DNA of 64,000 nt from Raja brachyura (taxonomy: Eukaryota), in assembly GCA_963514005.1 (NCBI GenBank), contig OY740783.1, positions 5,456,001 to 5,520,000 of the forward strand, written 5' to 3'. The stretch's first letter is position 1. Each line of letters starts with the position of its first letter. Shown piece by piece: positions 6,990 to 45,400 of this stretch. The translations under genes and the position numbers were made by a program. The notes under the pieces were generated by a model. The model was not told the DNA's origin and ran no database searches. It saw only the letters and a program-made list of their open reading frames with translations.

Positions 6990-9525
6990 ACAGAATCAGG
7001 TTTTGACAGTATGAGACGGAAATTAGCTAGGATAAACTGGCAAGTGATACTTAATGGCTTGATGATGGATATGTAATGGCAAAGATTTAAAGATCGTATG
7101 GATGAATTGCAACAATTGTTCACCCCTGTTTGGCGTAAAAATAAAACAGGGAAGGCGGCTCAACTGTGGATAATGATCGAAATTGGGGACATTGTTAAAT
7201 CCAAAGCGTACAAATTGGCCAGAGGAAGCAGCAAACCGGTGGACTGGGAGAAATTTAAAATTTAACAGAAGAGGACAAAGGGTTTAATTAAGAGGGGGAA
7301 AGTGGAGCATGAAAGGAAGCATGTGAGGAAAATATTAGTGAAGACAAATGTAGGTCCCTTACAGTCAGAAACAGGTTAATTTATAATGGGAAACAAGAAA
7401 ATGGCAGACCAGTTAAACAAATACTTTGGTTCTGTCTTCACTAAGGACGACACAAACATTCTCCCAGAAATACAAGGGGACCCAGGATCCAGTAGGAGGG
7501 AGGAAGTGAAGGAAATCAACATCAGTCAGGGAATGTTGTTAGGTAAACTGTTGGGATTGAAGGCAGATAAATCCCCAGAGCCTGATGGTCTGCATGCAAA
7601 CCAACTCAAGGAGGTGGCTCTCGAAATCGTGGATGCATTCGTGATCATTTTCCAATGTTCTATAGACACTGGATCATCTCCTGTGGACTGGAGGGTAGCT
7701 CATATAACCCCACTTTTTAAGGAAGGACGGAGAGAGAAAACATGGAATTATAGACCAGTTAGCCTGACATCGGTAGTGGGGAAGATGCTTGAGTCGATTA
7801 TTAAAGATGTTATAGCAGCGCATTTGGAAAGCACTGACAGGATCGGTCAAAATCGGCATGGATTTCTGAAGGGGAAACCATGCTTTTTTTTTGTTAGAAG
7901 TACAGTAATGTAGTACCTGATACATACATACATACATACATACATACATACATGTTGCCATTCTTGTACAAGTTCTTATTTTTTAAATAGCAGTGATAGA
8001 AAAAGGAAAATAATGAGTGTCGAGATAGATAGACAAGAGAGGAGAAACAGATAGCGAGAGAGACAAAAAGCAGAGATAAGAAACTAAGGAGATTGAAAAA
8101 GAAAAAGAAAATAGAAAGAAAATAAATTAGGAGAGATATACCTATTTAATATCTTTACCCATCCATCACCCGGTTCTGAACCATTTAATTTCTAAGGTTA
8201 TGTTATGTTGCACCATATGCTTGTAAGAAGTCGATAAAAGGAGACCAAGTCTTTAAGAATTGGTCTACTTTGCCTAGTAGGAGGAATCTCATTTCTTCAA
8301 GATGTAGCGTTTCCGTCATATTTGAAACCCACATTTTGTACGTTGGCGTGGATGCGTTTTTCCAAAATTTAAGTATAAGTTTTTTTGCTGTTATTAAACC
8401 ATAATTAAAGAGCGCTTCTTGGAACGTAGTTAATTTACGCCCCTCTTCCATTGATCCGAAGATAATCAGTTCTGTATTGGGGTTCAAATTTGTGCTGAAT
8501 AGTTTTGTAAAAGTTCCGAAGATTTCATTCCAATTTTGTACAGGAGACAAAGGAATGTGCTATAGTGGCATTTTGAGTTAGACATTTGTCACAAATGGGA
8601 GAAACATTTGGAAATATTTTATTCAACCTGGTTTTCGAGTAATATAGTCTATGTAAAATTTTAAATTGAATTAATGCTTGAAAAATTGGAAACCATGCTT
8701 GAATAATCTTCCGGAATTTTTTGAGTATGTAAGAGGGAAAATGAATAAGGGAGAGCCAATGGATGTGGTGTATCTGGACTACCTAATGCCCTTTGAAAAG
8801 GTCCCACACAATTGATTAGTGTGCAAAATGAGCGCACATGGTATTGGGGGGTGAGATATTGTCACGGATAGAAAACTGGTTGGCAGACAGGAAGCAAAGA
8901 GTAGCATATTAACGGGCCATTTTCAGAATGACAGGCCGTGACTAGTGGGTGGCTCAAGGCTCAATGCTGGTACCCCCAGGTATTTTCTATATATATTAAC
9001 GGTTTGGACGAAGGAATTAAATTTAACATCTCCAAGTTTGCGAATGACACAGAACCGGGTGGTAGTGTGAGTTTCAAGGAGGACTATTTGAGGCTACATG
9101 GTGACTTGGATATGTTGGGTCAGTGGACATATGCACGGTAGATATAGATATATGCACGGTACAGTATAATGTGGATACATTTGAGGCTATCCATTTTGGT
9201 GGCAAGAAAAATAAGGTAGATTATTATCTGAATGGTGTCAGATTAGGAAAAGGGAAGGTGCAACGAGACCTGTGTGTCCTTGTACATCAGTCACTGAAAA
9301 TAAACATGCAGGTTAGGCAGGCAGTGAAGAAAGTAACTGGCTTGTTGGCCTTCACAGTGAGGGGATTTGCGTATAGGAGCAAGGATGTCCCACTGCAGAT
9401 GTACAGGGCCCTGGTGAGACCACACCTATAGTATGGTGTGCAATTGTATCTCCTAATTTGAGGAAGAACATTCTTGCCATTGAATGAGTACAGCTTACGT
9501 TCATCAGGTTAATTCCCGGGATGCC
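6990..9525 (+). mobile_element. Degenerate CR1 LINE split by an L1 insertion
   Basis: ORF 7386-7913 and RT fragments 8700-9525. Confidence 0.85.
7886..8687 (-). mobile_element. L1-clade LINE 3' fragment
   Basis: ORF2 C-terminus (LILKFWK...W..FI), polyA at about 7884-7892, 13-bp TSD GGAAACCATGCTT (7873-7885 / 8688-8700); contains (TACA)n at 7921-7952. Confidence 0.88.
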
Positions 9526-27435: not shown

Positions 27436-27473
27436 ACTCCACCCTCAGCCTTGCATTGCACCCCAACACGAAC

Positions 27474-27770
27474 CTGGTAATGGCAGTTTATACTCTTTTT
27501 GGTTGTGCCGAACCACACAGAAGATGTCGCTTTCCCCAGCCACTGCCTCGGTGATGGTTAACTCGCTGCTCCGGGTGTAAGTTCCCAACTTATTGAACAC
27601 TGCCGGGTAGTTCTTCACTCCATCGACCAGGTCTGTATCATCTTTCTTCCAAGATACAATGGCGCCCGCAGGGGAATAGCCCAACGCCAAACAACCGTAG
27701 GTGAACGAACCACTGGAGCCGTGATCCTCGCACGTGAAGAGAATGAAGGGGCTGGGGGGGGAATCAGCCG
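27474..27770 (-). CDS. IGHM: IgM CH1 exon
   Basis: Acceptor CTTGCAG, 297 nt. AADSPPSPFILFTCEDHGSSGSFTYGCLALGYSPAGAIVSWKKDD...SDIFCVVRHNQKEYKLPLP has the C1-set Cys/Trp/Cys plus an N-terminal Cys for light-chain linkage. Donor GTTCGT. Confidence 0.93.
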
Positions 27771-28209
27771 CTGCAAGTTAAAGGTCACATGAATGTTAAA
27801 CTCTCTCTCTTGCTAGTTTTGCAAAATATTCAGTGCGAAGAATCATTATACAGCAATTCGTTACGCAATATTCTATTTCATGAAACTTCACCCGAGTATC
27901 ATAAACTATTAGTTCAACATAGAAAATGGAAACATAGAAAATAGGTGCAGGAGGAGGCCATTCGGCCCATTGAGCCAGCACCACCATTCATTGTGATCAT
28001 GGCTGATTCAACATTCCACCTTGATCCCACCTTGGAGCACATTGGCTGAAAACTTCTTGGGGTGCCAATATCTGGCAGTTACTGTCAAATGCACGCACAA
28101 TTTCCAGTTGGAAATATATCAATAGGCCTCCAGTATTAATTACTGTAAAATTCCCAGGGTTTCTCAGGAATGCTCAATGGCCATAAGTAACGTTACTATC
28201 TCACCAAAC

Positions 28210-28680
28210 TCCTTGTTGTGACTGGGGATGATGGAGTAAGGGCAGAACTAGGGGATACAGTGTGGACACGTGTGAGGGCCTCGTCTATGGTAAACGTGGG
28301 GAATACCCGCTCCCTAAAGAATGAGGAGCACGGATATTCTGGTATGGAACAACTCATCTTGGGAGCAGTTGCGCAGAGACGGTTGAATTTGGGAATAGGA
28401 CATAGAGTCTTTGCAGGAGGCAAGGTTGGAAGAGCTGTAGTCCTGATAGCTGTGAGAGTCCGTAGATTTGCAATTTACGACAGTCGATAGTCTATCTCCT
28501 GCGATGGAGACGGTGAGATCAACAAAGTGGAGGCATTGTGTCGGGGATGGACCCGGTGAAATTGAACGTAGGGTCTCAGTTAGTAGCTAATGAAGTCCAT
28601 GAGTTCTCCATGAGTATAGGAGGAAGAATACGGGGATAGGGGCAGTCTGTGTCAGGGGTTGTTCCATGTACCCAACCAAA
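28210..28680 (-). mobile_element. Penelope-like element RT C-terminal fragment
   Basis: SSFFRERVFP..IDEALTRV..VSPSSALTP and degenerate upstream RT motifs. Confidence 0.7.
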
Positions 28681-28710
28681 TGGAAATTGGTGGAATGATG
28701 TGGAATGTTG

Positions 28711-30685
28711 GAAACGAAATGTTCTGCTATTTTAATTATAGAACAGGGTATCCCACTAATACTTGAATAGAATGAGAATTGGAATCGATGGCTCAAAGGA
28801 GGATTTGACTGATGTTCAAAATTACATTTGCATTAATTTAATTAAAATTAAATAATTAGGTAGGTTTTGCTTGGACCCATGAGAGTGCCCATGGCAAAAC
28901 ATTTGATTTGGAGAGAAGAGTTTGGGTTTTATAAATGGTTCAGAGACTATCCGATCAATTCACAGAAATTGGAAAGAAGACTGGTTTACCATATCAGGCT
29001 CCCGAACATAAATTGAGAGAAGACAAAAAAAAAAAATCACAATCTTGCCATGAACTTGTCCCTAAAATGTGTCAATCGAACCAAACCAACTAAGGAGGTG
29101 GATGGGATTGAAATGGTAGCTCTATTATTTAACGACAAATAACACACCTAAAATGTCACTTAGCACTGTATTTTGTGAAATATCACTCCTATCACTCACG
29201 AAAATATACTGATCATTTGTATGCCGACAGTAATTACAAGTAAATTCCGAAAAGCAATCCAGCCGACATTGGATAAGAACATTACATTCATACCAGATAA
29301 AAAAATATGGAAGAGATTGCATTGGTAAAGATTTTAATTAACTCTCTCAATATAATGTCTACATTAATAAACGTTATGTAATCCAACATCTGGAAGCTAA
29401 ATGTAGCATATAAATTGTAAGAACACTCCTGACTCAAAATTAATAATATTAGGAATATTAGAACACATCAATTAATAACAACGAATAAAATAATTTTTAT
29501 CGATTACAGTTTAATAATTGGGAAAAAATTAATATTGAAATTTTGGAAAGGTCCTACATCCCCCACAATCAAAATGTGGATTACAGGAATGTCGGAGACA
29601 CTTCACCTGGAAAGATTAAGACTTGTCCTACTGGGCAAGTTGGATCAATTCAGAGGGATATGGTCTCCATTTATTGAATATTTAAAGGGTCAAAATGGCT
29701 CGGTGCGAGAACCTGACTGAAGCCTGAATGAAGGAATAGATGAAGAATCACATATAATAATCCATGGATATATCTCCAATGATGTATAACCTGCTCAATA
29801 CTTCATTCATCTTTTTGATTTTCTATTTTTACTTTATTTTTCTCTATTATTTTCTACCTGTATTAAAAAAAAAATTAAATGCATAGAAGTACAAATAAGA
29901 AATAATTGTTAATATTAATGTGACATGTATATTCTTCCTTTAATATGTACTTCGAATAAAAATATTTAACAAAAAGAAAAATAAATAAATAGTAAGAACA
30001 TGTTAGTACTTCGCCATTGAATCAATTGGCACAGGTTTCAAATGTTTGTCTGTGTGCACCATTGCAATGGACTGTCCCTTAATGGATTCAAAAATTAATC
30101 AAATGAATATTAATGTTTTTGCAATGACGCTCAGTTCCGTTTCCAGCATCTTTAAAACGAGTTTACGTTTACAATATCATCGGCACTGGAGAACGAATGA
30201 TTAACGTTGTATCACTGTCTGATCGGAAACAAATTAAAAAGATACCCATCATAAATTACAACCTGCAATCTATTAAAAAAAAATCGAAGTTTGCTTCGTG
30301 ACTTTAACGGCAAAAGTCTTTAATTCATATAGAGGAAGTCTACTTTTAATATTGAAAATGCACAATGTTGGTAAATCAATGTTTTAATTAATTAAATGCA
30401 AATGTAATTTTGAACGTCGCTCAAACCCTCCTATGAGCCATCGATTTAAAGTCTGATTCTGTTCAAGGATTAGTGGGATACCCTGTTCTATAATTAAAAT
30501 AGCAGAAAATCTCGTTCCATTTCCCCAATTTTCTTTTTTTTACCGTAAATTACATTTTTCATTAGCAATTTAGTAAATAGAGGAACGTTATGTTTAAATG
30601 ACATTGGGCGCCGTAGACAAAATTTGATTTCAAATTGTCTTTCTAATAAATGCGTGGATTAAAAATTATTTAAATACTACAGCTG
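28711..30685. promoter_or_regulatory. Candidate J-C intronic enhancer region (two octamers, PU box, E-box)
   Basis: ATTTGCAT 28826-28833 and ATGCAAAT 30396-30403 lie in an inverted duplication; AGAGGAAGT 30331-30339; CAGCTG 30680-30685; AT-rich flanks. Function is inferred. Confidence 0.45.
29426..29985 (+). mobile_element. L1-clade 3' fragment in the J-C intron
   Basis: KFWKGPTSPTIKMW...WSPFIEYL, AATAAA and A-rich tail, about 15-bp TSD TAAAT(T/A)GTAAGAACA (29411-29425 / 29986-30000). Confidence 0.87.
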
Positions 30686-30879
30686 TTCCGAAATGTCCCC
30701 ATTTGACATTCAACGTATTTTCCAAATAGGTAATGTCGTGGTATTGAACAGGAAATTGAGACATGGGTCATGGGGTCGGGCAACACTTGTGGAAGGGGAA
30801 AACCAATACATTTCCAGGTCAACGATACTTGGATGACCAGTTCATGGCAAATTCAATTAAGATTAGAGATGGAACAAAG

Positions 30880-31120
30880 AAATAGATCTTTCTGCCAACC
30901 GAATCCGCGGCGACACACACGTTCTACGTTATCGCATCCACCCCTGACACACCAGGGACAATCACACAGGTCAATTAACCTGCAAACCTGCACATCTTCG
31001 GGACGTGGGAGGAAAGCAGAGCACCAGTAAATAGCATTTAAACCACAGGGAGAATGCACAAATTCCTACACAGTCTGCCACTGATTTCGGAAACGTAGTC
31101 GGCGCTCTGGCGCTACCAGC
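30880..31120 (-). mobile_element. Degenerate V-SINE
   Basis: Reverse complement of the central domain seen at 11590-11620 (CAATTAACCTGCAAACCTGCAC). Confidence 0.65.
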
Positions 31121-32592
31121 TGTCTTTCTGGTCCCAGGCCTGAGATTTGACTTTCGCCGCAGGTTGCCTGACCCTTTAAGTGTTTGCAGAATGTATTGGT
31201 CTTATTAATTTACATCAATTCCTACTTATTTTTAAACATATATCTTCTTTGTGTTTATTGAAATAACCCAATCCGACAGCAATACCCGGTCGTTGCCATT
31301 CGAATTGAACATACAAAAACATCCAATTGTGCAACAACATCGTCTCCCGCAATGACCGGCTGAATGATACCACTGATGGGCTGAATCACACAACACACAT
31401 TGACTGAAACTCTTCACAAAAATCCAAATATTTCTGTCCATAGACTACCGAAATTCATTGGCCAAAAGATGTCCGAGCCAATCATTGTTGAAATAACAAT
31501 GATTAACACAATAACAAATGGACTCCACCAATACATAGATACATAGACAATAGATAGATCCTGTTACTGCTAACCAAACGCGCCGATGTTACTTATTTGC
31601 TAATTGACTCCAGCATCTCCCCCAATACCGATGTCAGGCCAACTGCTCTGTCATTCCCTGCTTTCTCTCTCCCTCCTATCTTGAAAAGTGGGATAACATT
31701 ATCTACCCTTAATCCACAGGAACTGATGCAGAATCTATAGGACATTGCAGAGTGATTACCAATGCTTCCACGATATGGAGACACACCGCCTTCCCAACCC
31801 ATTGTTCAAGCGATTTTGATTGCAACATGCGCCTTAATTGAGTTCAACAAAGAAACTGACAAGTTACTAAAGAACTTTGCACTTCTGTGCTTTGCTGCAA
31901 GAAAATGATACATCTTCAATGCAAGTTTTGTTAGCCATTGGATCAAAGGTGGCAATGCGATTCCACCAATTAATACATACACTTCTTAAATACAAAACTT
32001 GGACATTTTACACCCCTTTCTATCGTTTGTTTCATATAGAAACATAGAAAATAGGTGCAGGAGGAGGCCATTTGGCCCTTCGAGCCAGCACCGCCATTCA
32101 TTGTGATCATGGCTTATCATCCCCAATCAATAACCCGTGCCTGCCTTCTCCCCATATCCCTTGATTCCACTAGCCCCTAGAGCTCTATCTAACTCTCTCT
32201 TAAATCCATGTGTTGAGAAATATGCGTTGAGAACAAACAAACTGAGACAAAGCATCTGCTGTCGATCAGAAAACACAGTTCAATGCATCGCCGATCTGGG
32301 ACCACAACAGTCTCAAACAATTTGAAAGCATGGTGAAGGCAAATTCAAGCACATTTTTTGACTAATTAGGAACTAAATCACATCCGTTTCATCGTCAAAG
32401 GATCGAAGTCATAGCATACAAAGGCACGTTTAATTCAGGAATCTCACTGCAGCGAAATAACATAACATTCTAAAGCAACATCGATCCAACATTGCAATGA
32501 ATTTGTAATTAATGCAGAAGACAATTACTGGAAATATATATTAAAATTACAACTGGATACATCTAGAGACTGAATAGGATGAAGTTTCTTAC

Positions 32593-33992: not shown

Positions 33993-34293
33993 TCTCTCGC
34001 ACAGTAATAGACAGCGGTGTCTTCGATCCTCAGGTCCCTGGCGGTCACGGTGAACATATTCGAATTGTCTTTGGACGGAGTAAATCGGCTCTCTATCCCC
34101 GGAGCGAAGTGCTTGTCAGTAGGACTGTAGTAGTGAAGCACCCACTCCAGCCCCTGCCCGGGGACCTGACGGACCAAATGCATTTCGGCACTGCTAAGAG
34201 TCAACCCGCTGGTTTTACATTCCAGTGTGATGGAGCCTCCAGGACGGGCCGTCGCTGTCTTGGGCTGAGTTAGAACGATATCGGAATGGACAC
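33993..34293 (-). CDS. IGHV: VH exon of IgM cluster, germline and unrearranged
   Basis: Acceptor CTTGCAG; translates VHSDIVLTQPKTATARPGGSITLECKTSGLTLSSAEMHLVRQVPGQGLEWVLHYYSPTDKHFAPGIESRFTPSKDNSNMFTVTARDLRIEDTAVYYCAR. Both Cys and the YYCAR motif present, no stops, directly followed by an RSS heptamer. Confidence 0.97.
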
Positions 34294-34457
34294 CTGCAAG
34301 TTATAAAAGGCATGAATGGTGAGGAGATAAAATACTGACCATTAATCCCCGACACTAATTATCAAGAGGAAAGACATTGGGAGGGTTGAAGAGTGGGTAG
34401 AAGGGGAATGGCGTTGGGGATCTACCACGTGTGGATTTTGTCCAACTCGTTACTCAC

Positions 34458-34503
34458 GGACTATTAATGCCAGGAACAGACTCAGTGAAACCGCCGACCT
34501 CAT
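34458..34503 (-). CDS. IGHV: IgH leader exon (MRSAVSLSLFLALIV, phase 1)
   Basis: ATG at 34503-34501, 15 hydrophobic codons plus 1 nt, then donor GTGAGT (34457-34452). Splices in frame to the V exon (R-V-H-S|DIVLTQ). Confidence 0.93.
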
Positions 34504-34596: not shown

Positions 34597-34666
34597 TTAA
34601 ATACCCGGCAAAAGAGGGCGTGGCTGTGGGCGGGGCCTGTAAACCGAGTGGTGCAGCGGGCGGAGC
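34597..34666 (-). promoter_or_regulatory. VH core promoter: TATA-like box and GC boxes, no octamer
   Basis: TATTTAA at 34603-34597 (about 95 nt upstream of ATG); GGGCGTGG 34616-34623, GGGCGGGG 34628-34635, GGGCGGAG 34659-34666. Confidence 0.6.
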
Positions 34667-37553: not shown

Positions 37554-38057
37554 TTTGTTGGGAATATTATTGACTACCATCATCCATATGAACTTCAACT
37601 TTGTTTATTTTTTATACGAGTGAACGTTGACAACTTAAACTAAATTTCTCTGAAGTAGTCAGTTGGGAGATTTGCATTTCTTTCTCACTTTATCAGTTTT
37701 GCACCTCTCGGGAAACATTGACTCCATTTCTGTCCTTCAGTAAACGAACTTAGGTCTGGGGCTGTTGAAATCAGCGTTTATTTAAATCAGCTCATCTCTG
37801 TTTCCAGCCACTTTTAGAGCAACACAAACCAGGCAATGAAGACACCATTCTCAACGGCGATGATATGTTTTAAGGATATTGGCAGTTGGCGCGAATCAAC
37901 TGAACTCTCTGAAGGAGTCCATTTCTTCATTTCTCGTTCAAATAAATTGATGGGATTGAAAATTATGGATTCACTTCAGAATATTATTTTGCTGCCCACT
38001 TGAATCTCCACTTGCAGGGATGTTTGAGCAAATGAGGTCAATAGAGGAATCACAAAG

Positions 38058-42424: not shown

Positions 42425-45400
42425 AGTCATACCAATATACAAAACTGGGAACAAGCATAATTTCACAAACTACAGACCTGTTTCTTTACTCCCTCAATTC
42501 TCCAAAATACTAGAAAAAATGTTCAACAATAGACTAGACATATTTGTAGAAAAGCATAAACTAATCACTGAAAGTCAATATGGATTCAGATCAAACAGAT
42601 CAACATCACTTGCAATAATAGAATCAATTGAAGATATCACAAACACTGTTGACAATAAACTATATGCAGCTGGGATATTTATTGATATAAAGAAAGCATT
42701 TGATACGATCAATCATGATATCATATTTAAAAAACTGGAAAGGTATGGCATCAGAGGTCTAGTACTGGATTGGATAAAAAGCTATTTAAGTAACAGGCAA
42801 CAGTTTGTGAAGCTGGGCAGCTCATTAAACTTGAGCAAAACCAAAATAATGTTATTTGGTAATTGCAGAACAAATACACAAGCGAATATAAAGATAAATG
42901 GGGTTGAAATTGAACGAGTTCATGAAAATAAATTTCTTGGGGTTATAATGGATGATAGAATCAGCTGGAAATCACACATGTACAATCCAAACTGTCAAAA
43001 AGCATTTCTGTATTACTCAAAGTTAAGCAGGTTCTGGATCACAAATCACTCCGCATTCTCTACTGTTCACTAATCTTACCCTACTTAAATTACCGTGCAG
43101 AAGTCTGGGGCAATAACTATAAAAGTTCGCTACATTCATTAACTATTCTGCAAAAAAGAGCAATACGCATTATTCACAATGTCAGGTATCTGGATCACAC
43201 TAATTCATTATTCTTACAGTCAGAATTATTAAAATCAGCAGATTTGGTTGCATTTGAAACAGCACAGATAATGTTTCGGGCCAAAAATAAAAACTTACCT
43301 GGAAATATACAAAAATTATTCAATGAGCGAGTGGGGGGTTATAATTTAAGAAGAATATTTAATTTTAAGGTACAAAGAGTCCTTGCAACAATATCCACTA
43401 AAAATAGTTACGGACAAATTTAAATATTTAGGTATTAATGTATCTAAATCCTATAACTCATTAATTAAATCTTAACTATCCCCAATTGTTAGATAAACTT
43501 AGAAAAAATATTTTATATTGGAAAACACTTCCTATATCTATGATTGGTAGAATAAATGCTATAAAAATGATTTTTTTACCACAACTGTTATATTTGTTTC
43601 AAGCTATCCCCTTTTATGTCCCGAAATTTTTTTTTTTTTAAATCGATAACATAGTTAATAGTTTTATCTGGGACTATAAAAATCATAGAATAAGTAAAAA
43701 ACATTTATGTAAATCCAAAATAAATGGAGGATTAGCACTTCCAAATTTTTTGTACAATTTTTGGGCAGTTCAGATCAAAAATATGAATTTTTGGTGGGTA
43801 AATTTGGATCATGAACCAATGTGGTTAAAGATGGAAAAGGAAGATTGTTTACCTTTTAATGTAGGTTCAATTCTTTTTGCGCCAAGAGAAGTTAAAAAAA
43901 AAATTTATAGGGACAACCCTATAATTCATAGTAATAGACGTATTTGGAAACAAATAGTTAAGACTTTACATTTAGATAATTTGTCACTTAACCTACCGAT
44001 TATGAATAATCCTTTATTTAAACCCTCTATATTAGATAGGGGGTTTAGACATTGGGAAGATTTAGGAATTAAAAAGATAGAACACCTGTACAGAAAGGGA
44101 AAATTTCTTTCATTTCAGGAGTTACAAGATATTTATGGATTACCATCACATAATTTGTTCAGGTATTTACAAATTAGAGATTATATTAAGTCTAACACAA
44201 AAAATTATAAAAATAAAGAACCAGGATTATTAGATGAATTGTTTAATAAACACCCAAACACAGAAAAATTAATAGCTTATATATATAATATTATTTTGGA
44301 TAGTGATAACCCAACAACAGAAATATATCGTCAAGCATGGGAAAATGAAATTGGTTTATCTATAACGAAAGAAACTTGGGAAGAAAGTTTACAATGTATA
44401 CATCGTTGTTCGTTAAATGCTAGGCATACATTGATACAATTTAAAGTATTATATAGATTACATTATTCAAAAACATAGAAACATAGAAACATAGAAATTA
44501 GGTGCAGGAATAGGCCATTCGGCCCTTCGAGCCTGCACCGCCATTCAATATGATCATGGCTGATCATCCAACTCAGTATCCCGTACCTGCCTTCTCTCCA
44601 TACCCTCTGATCCCCTTAGCCACAAGGGCCACATCTAACTCCCTCTTAAATATATCCAATGAACTGGCCTCAACTACCCTCTGTGGCAGAGAATTCCAGA
44701 GACCCACCACTCTCTGTGTGAAAACCAAATTAAATAGAATTTTTCCTAACGTTTCACCTATTTGTGATAAATGTCAGAATTTAGAGGCCAATTTAACACA
44801 TAGTTTCGTAACGTGTTCAAAACTTAGTTATTATTGGACAGAAATCTTTAGAGTTATATCTGAAGTTCTTAGAGTTAAACTGGATCCAGATCCAAAGTTA
44901 ATAATATTAGGAATTCCAGACTCAAAATTGGTATTAACAGTAAATCAAAGACATTTTTTTGATTACTGTTTGATAATAGGGAAAAAAATAATATTGAAAT
45001 TTTGGAAGGGAACATTAACCCCCATAATTAAAATGTGGACAGCAGAGATGTTGGAGACATTGTATTTGGAAAGAATTAGATTTGTCCTAATGGACAAATG
45101 TGAAATTTTTGAACAAATATGGTCTCCATATATACAATATTTGAAGGGATAGCTGTTCTTGGCATCGCAACTCAATGGGTATTCGACAGGATTTGATGGA
45201 AAAAAAAACAACTTACTTTCAAACTGGGATTTGTATACATGTCTCTATAACAATATATTTTGTTGTTTTGTTTTTAAATATATATATATATGATACCTTT
45301 TACTGTTTTTAAAGGGGAAATATATATATATTGAATAGATATATATTAATTAATGTGTTTTTTCTTTCTCTTTTTTTTCTCTCTCTTTCTCTTTAAATTT

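Follow-up and report, generated by a model that had tools for sequence, protein, structure and literature searches.

According to the excerpt of PMC8269369, MARs flank the mammalian intronic enhancer Emu, whose 220-bp core contains Ets, PU.1, E-box and octamer sites; the excerpt of PMC1800861 puts Emu's one octamer beyond the core. In catfish, Emu3' combines two variant octamers with a uE5 site and lies 3' of mu (PMC1800861, excerpt), and the mammalian IgH 3' regulatory region contains a palindrome around hs1.2 whose arms are reported to co-vary (PMC9936319, excerpt). For sharks, the excerpt of PMC2435157 gives the upstream octamer of IgH as absent and proposes a promoter–enhancer holocomplex, naming no enhancer in that portion, and OCA-B orthologues are reported in the excerpt of PMC13043367. 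The excerpted portions of PMC4279169, PMC12227049 and PMC5192425 mention neither an enhancer nor an octamer. Here we analyse an inverted pair of octamer-bearing arms in the J–CH1 intron of IgM clusters in the skate Raja brachyura; no description of this element was found in the literature searched, a body that leaves the key primary papers outside and does not establish absence from print.

The window, the 64,000-nucleotide stretch of DNA analysed here, contains one IgM cluster on the minus strand, which includes two D segments with RSS between its V exon and its JH segment (Table 1). The J–CH1 intron (32592-27771, minus strand, 4.8 kb) contains both arms, which places them in the Emu-type position, between JH and the first constant exon. 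The AT-rich setting noted in the preliminary description is confirmed by a GC content of 0.37-0.39 across 28001-32000, against 0.40-0.48 in the remaining 2-kb bins of 1-42000. Near the constant exons, self-BLAST also finds self-complementary stretches (19150-19808 and 22444-22681) of 71-74% identity.

Table 1 Features of the IgM cluster and of the inverted arms, in window coordinates.
Feature	Position	Strand	Remarks
Third octamer	37670..37677	-	Upstream of V; 3.1 kb upstream of the TATA box in the window
TATA-like box, VH promoter	34598..34606	-	Positive control of the constraint test
Leader exon	34503-34457	-	IgM leader
V exon	34293-33993	-	Open frame, then RSS heptamer; with leader, 33993..34503
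JH segment	32593..32640	-	
E-box CAGCTG	30680..30685	.	Not conserved; 277 nt from the octamer
J-proximal arm	30382..30530	+	Putative donor; outer end partly deleted in the window
Octamer ATGCAAAT, J-side arm	30396..30403	+	2.2 kb from the J splice donor
PU-box-like AGAGGAAGT	30331..30339	+	Not conserved beyond background
Younger spacer insertion	29426..30000	+	575 bp; A-rich tail; C3 array only
Retroelement fragment	28858..28914	-	5' of the insertion; AMGTLMGPS motif
CH1-proximal arm	28681..28857 (homology 28678-28847)	-	177-bp insertion in the retroelement fossil; inverted copy of the J-proximal arm
Octamer ATGCAAAT, CH1-side arm	28826..28833	-	
Decayed reverse-transcriptase retroelement fragment	28010..28680	-	3' of the insertion
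CH1 exon of IgM	27473..27770	-	Closes the J–CH1 intron
CH2 exon of IgM	22226-21930	-	More constant exons from about 22226

A genome search with CH1 identified 27 close clusters, as well as a divergent gene on C35; once a C17 cluster in which no CH1 was found is added to the close ones, the IgM family as analysed here has 28 members. Two tandem arrays, at C2:150.3-151.1 Mb and C3:5.2-6.3 Mb, hold nine and eight members, mostly split and some partly joined. Most of the dispersed clusters, which sit on C2, C3, C4, C5, C9, C15, C17, C24, C30 and C47, are joined in the germline: the join is in frame at C15:0.55 Mb, C9 and C24, and out of frame or otherwise altered at C47, C30, C4, C5, C17 and C2:156.6 Mb. 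The divergent IgM-like constant region (C35:31561352-31564897) has 48% identity in CH1 and 60% in CH2, with no V or J located in the 15 kb upstream of CH1; an octamer lies 2.6 kb before its CH1, but four octamers occur in 28 kb there and may be due to chance. For the C3 clusters at 5.25 and 5.85 Mb, only 3-kb loci were read.

The inverted pair is confirmed: a BLAST search of the window with this region aligned 28713-28847 with 30516-30382 at 88.9% identity over 135 nt (E 2.6e-45), upholding the pair as previously described while trimming its ends, drawn at 28711 and 30518, by 2 nt. Other clusters put the ancestral arm at about 170 bp, and the J-side arm of the window is shortened at its outer end. 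The 39-nt core (28722-28760 / 30469-30507) is identical in both arms, exactly as reported, and is not surprising because the arms already match at 120/135 positions: when the 15 mismatches are shuffled, a run of that length has p 0.068. Gene conversion between the arms was considered as the source of this core and rejected, given the run-length probability and the lack of any excess of identity within clusters. The perfect octamer in each arm occupies its stated position, as do CAGCTG at 30680 and the PU box, which is separated from the octamer by 57 nt; CAGGTG does not occur between 29609 and 32807. The earlier statement that the VH promoter has no octamer holds for a perfect proximal site, but a third perfect octamer, unlisted until now, lies farther upstream of V.

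The CH1-side arm interrupts a recognizable host. The DNA outside it is a high-copy repeat (3557 first-look candidates genome-wide) with dispersed copies that are 76-78% identical, and in translation a decayed reverse transcriptase frame flanks the arm, with AMGTLMGPS on one side and LVGYMEQ on the other. Atlas neighbours of this retroelement fossil bear HTH_animal and RVT_1, and Pfam returned nothing for four decayed retroelement frames; from its motifs we take the fossil to be presumably Penelope-like. In three of five dispersed copies (L139, L140 and L143) the equivalents of 28858 and 28680 are joined directly, and the remaining two (L141 and L142) do not align across the insertion site. Because these positions adjoin in dispersed copies, the fossil was split by a clean insertion of 177 bp, namely the CH1-side arm, and part of the spacer between the arms is host DNA. 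Target-site duplication is absent, and at both ends the junctions carry 2-3 nt of microhomology (CT at the inner, TTT at the outer) common to the target, the insert and the J-side arm, a signal that is weak alone because it is so short.

The J-side arm, by contrast with this repeat, sits in DNA found only at IgM clusters. All 40 scored matches to the arm (from 46 candidates) fell at IgM clusters in a genome search that is insensitive below about 80% identity and missed the arms at C3:128.6 Mb; the arm is thus not a high-copy repeat, a point on which the preliminary description had made its reading depend. The same held for the J-side spacer (25/25 matches), the outer flank of the J arm (28/28) and the core pattern (19/19), and an octamer-context pattern matched IgM clusters in 41 of 48 cases, the other seven being comparable to the eight of the control. 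When profiles were built from the arm and from the upstream element, neither gave a match at E below 1 in the divergent IgM-like C35 gene, six IgW stretches, two C15 stretches whose type is unassigned, two light-chain-like stretches, C19 or C15:59.0 Mb. Among sequencing-run contigs from four other organisms, the spacer and CH1-side arm are covered in all and the J-side arm fully in three, with no single contig spanning the whole stretch.

Across the 28 clusters, both arms are present in 23, one in three (C47, C9 and C2:156.6 Mb) and none in two, C15:58.4 Mb and C24, which lack any octamer-bearing part of the arms. Both are retained in 17/17 clusters of the two tandem arrays, and the five clusters with arm deletions are all dispersed and also have the longest branches. 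The arm octamers are perfect at 43 of 49 sites, comprising the CH1-side octamer in 23/25 clusters that retain that arm and the J-side octamer in 20/24; an octamer variant, ATGTAAAT, occurs at C2:150.96 Mb. At C2:150.77 Mb, V, CH1 and CH2 are open and the V heptamer is present, yet there is no perfect intronic octamer, and at C15:58.4 Mb and C24, where V, CH1 and CH2 are also open, both octamers are gone along with the arms. Sharing among clusters does not amount to conservation, because it extends by common descent to the entire intron, than which the arms are no more conserved. Two local rearrangements were also seen: the C9 cluster has a second perfect octamer, in opposite orientation about 135 bp from the CH1-side one and in unrelated inserted DNA, which gives it two intronic octamers despite its J-side deletion, probably by chance; and in the C2 array an AT-rich unit beside the octamer, at the inner end of the CH1-side arm, has become a short tandem run of variable length.

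Together, these data define an inverted local duplication in the J–CH1 intron of IgM clusters that is real, IgM-specific and old. An empty site, a nearby template, absence of target duplication and junction microhomology, the features of a templated inverted insertion, are all present. The J-side arm would be the template, likely copied in reverse into the retroelement about 1 kb away by templated break repair, with microhomology-mediated template switching as the putative route. In the arm tree, J arms form one group with the C arms outside it, although support at deep nodes is low, and C–J identity within a cluster (0.76-0.89) is no higher than between clusters; both observations fit one duplication before the radiation of the clusters without concerted evolution, of which the arms give no sign. 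The duplication thus likely predates the cluster radiation, and shortly so: one event would have occurred in the founder cluster just before the present clusters spread, and the copy likely multiplied afterwards with gene-cluster duplication as a mostly neutral passenger. We therefore favour, as the probable though by no means assured account, a repair scar carried as a mostly neutral passenger. It would be an ordinary scar with an unusually legible origin, because the repeat that received the copy has a known empty site. Against this account, the junction microhomologies are short and old, all 17 array clusters retain both arms, and the octamers themselves appear short of substitutions.

That last point rests on parsimony substitutions counted on a 26-cluster tree against base- and CpG-specific non-coding rates. 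The tree was built on columns that include exons and leaves out C19, C35 and C15:59.0 Mb, where the intron is not alignable; at 0.84 substitutions per site it is short, and power on 8-bp words is therefore low. With two references, observed/expected ratios were 0.94-1.00 for the J arm and 1.00-1.01 for the C arm, which is the non-coding rate, compared with 1.01 and 0.88 for the spacer and 0.91 for the retroelement fossil. Most controls responded, with ratios of 0.73-0.76 for CH1, 0.73 for CH2, 0.69 for the leader and 0.55 for the acceptor, and the TATA box had 0 changes against 5.5 expected; the J segment and the 81 bp upstream of the TATA box gave no response (1.0 each), which means that some functional DNA escapes the test.

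The module of octamer, PU box and E-box put forward in the preliminary description was not borne out. The PU box had 4 substitutions against 4.3 expected (0.94), its GGAA core being retained in five of eight divergent representatives, and CAGCTG had 8 against 3.6 (2.2), about twice the background rate, and was retained in four of nine. Among Ets, E-box and MEF2 words, none persists across every divergent representative (the arm holds a MEF2-type word that only 3-4 of 8 retain), and NF-kB, IRF and Runx words were not found in the two stretches scanned. A compact core in which conserved Ets/PU.1 and E-box sites accompany the octamer is accordingly not seen at this locus.

The octamers behave somewhat differently from these words. 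The CH1-side octamer had 2 substitutions against 4.6 expected and the J-side octamer 2 against 3.9, plus a 1-nt insertion in two clusters; jointly this is 4 against 8.5, with p 0.07 against all 8-mers and 0.17-0.20 when the controls are likewise unchanged in the window. All changes are terminal: branches ancestral to the array clusters had 0 against 2.3 expected, and the terminal branches of the two arrays had 2 substitutions and the insertion against 1.3. Any function here would reside in the octamer word itself, and not in the palindrome or its 170-bp arms, the PU box or the E-box.

The third octamer may be a better candidate than those of the arms. A search with the region around it gave 23 matches, all at or beside IgM clusters, and the octamer is perfect in all 23 genomic copies, including those of two armless clusters; one copy (C2:150475285-150475518, at C2:150.475 Mb) has no CH1 match of its own and is possibly a partial cluster duplicate. 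Its distance to the V exon is 1.9-6.3 kb in ten clusters, a spread due to insertions. For the 20 of 23 copies that are on the tree, it shows 0 changes against 4.0 expected (p 0.02-0.065), and the sequence on either side varies at roughly the background rate. The three octamers pooled had 4 changes against 12.6 expected (p 0.005-0.038), the third having been added after its retention was noticed. The upstream octamer may be a displaced promoter or enhancer octamer.

In a rival, functional account, the J-side octamer would belong to an Oct2/OCA-B-dependent intronic enhancer through which every IgM cluster could be activated independently. The second site supplied by the duplication would then be redundant, with the invariant upstream octamer as promoter-side partner. 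We regard this as a tentative possibility. The J-side octamer lies 1.5-2.2 kb past J in AT-rich DNA, as in mammalian Emu (excerpt of PMC8269369), most arm sites are perfect with none of the substitutions on ancestral array branches, and the upstream octamer is as free of change as the TATA control. Furthermore, ATGTAAAT is a functional word of catfish Emu3' (excerpt of PMC1800861), an OCA-B orthologue is reported in sharks (excerpt of PMC13043367), and shark IgH has no proximal promoter octamer, its enhancer holocomplex being merely proposed (excerpt of PMC2435157). On the other side, no partner site is conserved, clusters that look intact have no intronic octamers, and chance alone would put about 0.7 octamers into the 6.6 kb of non-coding DNA that the clusters share, where two independent ones are seen. 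IgW also provides no parallel: six of six stretches of 9.9 kb (J located in three) contain no perfect octamer. Counting against a wholly neutral passenger, enhancers can turn over without sequence constraint, and substitutions are in deficit in the arm octamers (4 against 8.5, p 0.07 raw) and in all three together.

A fuller version of the functional account is more doubtful still. Skate IgM clusters would use octamers away from the TATA box, one invariant and upstream and the other a repair-doubled enhancer site in the J–CH1 intron; the upstream octamer would have lain 1-1.5 kb before the promoter prior to insertions, and the doubling would have come just before the founder cluster spread. 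If true, this would provide the cis-elements by which clusters in cartilaginous fish are activated autonomously, and the view that IgH genes in these fish manage with no upstream octamer would have to be revised. The genome supplies three defined octamer sites and natural controls in clusters with two, one and zero intronic octamers.

We give little weight to the readings that involve neither a passenger nor an Oct-dependent enhancer, even taken together. Improbable in its own right is that a small mobile element, rare today, inserted twice independently to give the two arms, with neither arm the donor of the other. The CH1-side arm is indeed a clean insertion, and the empty-site comparison covers that arm, the J-side arm having no alignable outgroup in the DNA compared. 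However, the search, which reaches about 80% identity, found no copy beyond IgM clusters, the arm has no target-site duplication or terminal repeats of its own, and two insertions 1 kb apart with none elsewhere would be an unlikely outcome.

Later insertions bear on a further reading, that the palindrome itself is functional and kept matched, as around mammalian hs1.2. The spacer insertion has a 9-bp target duplication, GTAAGAACA, at 29417-29425 and 29992-30000, resembles 44885-45148 and 8231-8405, is missing from divergent clusters and appears to be a LINE-like 3' end; other insertions lengthen the spacer, which ranges from about 1 to 5.6 kb among clusters, and a SINE-like piece interrupts the J arm in the C2 array and the C4/C5/C17 group. 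A functional palindrome has in its favour that the inverted arms lie within an IgH locus, that their outer halves match at 88-89 of 95 positions in two C3 clusters and that the mammalian palindrome is conserved as architecture rather than as sequence (excerpt of PMC9936319). The splitting of the J arm, the stretching of the spacer and a within-cluster arm identity not above the cross-cluster level nevertheless make this very improbable, and the absent co-variation of the arms already largely refutes it.

Least tenable, with next to no probability left to it, is the alternative of the preliminary description that an old DNA transposon delivered the octamers and left the arms as its terminal inverted repeats: a 1-kb spacer enclosed by inverted arms of some 170 bp would suit it, but retroelement sequence flanks the CH1-side arm on both sides, resuming past the arm so that the spacer is not internal to one element and the arms are therefore not transposon ends, the outer ends have no target duplication, and the arms and J-side spacer are confined to IgM clusters in searches that reach down to about 80% identity.

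The inverted octamer arm pair, of which we found no earlier description, is neither a transposon relic nor a conserved octamer–PU–E-box module, and a repair scar carried as a passenger remains our preferred reading of it. In its likely origin, it resembles MMBIR and TMEJ templated insertions (excerpts of PMC8421209 and PMC7165422), which are likewise short inverted copies of nearby DNA, lacking a target duplication and showing microhomology of 2-3 nt at both junctions; the skate copy differs in being germline-fixed, old and multiplied by cluster duplication. As an inverted duplication in an IgH locus it recalls the hs1.2 palindrome (excerpt of PMC9936319), which, in contrast, is large, lies 3' of the constant genes and is reported to co-vary, whereas the skate pair is 170 bp, intronic and without co-variation. 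With catfish Emu3' (excerpt of PMC1800861) it shares two octamers at a fish IgM gene, including the ATGTAAAT variant in one skate cluster; the catfish element has been tested and forms one core 3' of mu, and the skate octamers lie 1-5.6 kb apart in the J–CH1 intron. Mammalian Emu (excerpt of PMC8269369) is matched in the JH-to-first-constant position, in the octamer, in PU.1-type and E-box words and in AT-richness. However, Emu gathers uA, E3, uB, E2/E4/E5 and one octamer in 220 bp, and the skate words extend across 350 bp, with an octamer doubled by inverted insertion and a PU box and E-box that are not conserved, all known here from sequence alone. Because conserved partner sites were not found, we do not file the element as a member of the Emu class, although it may still act as a simple Oct-dependent enhancer.
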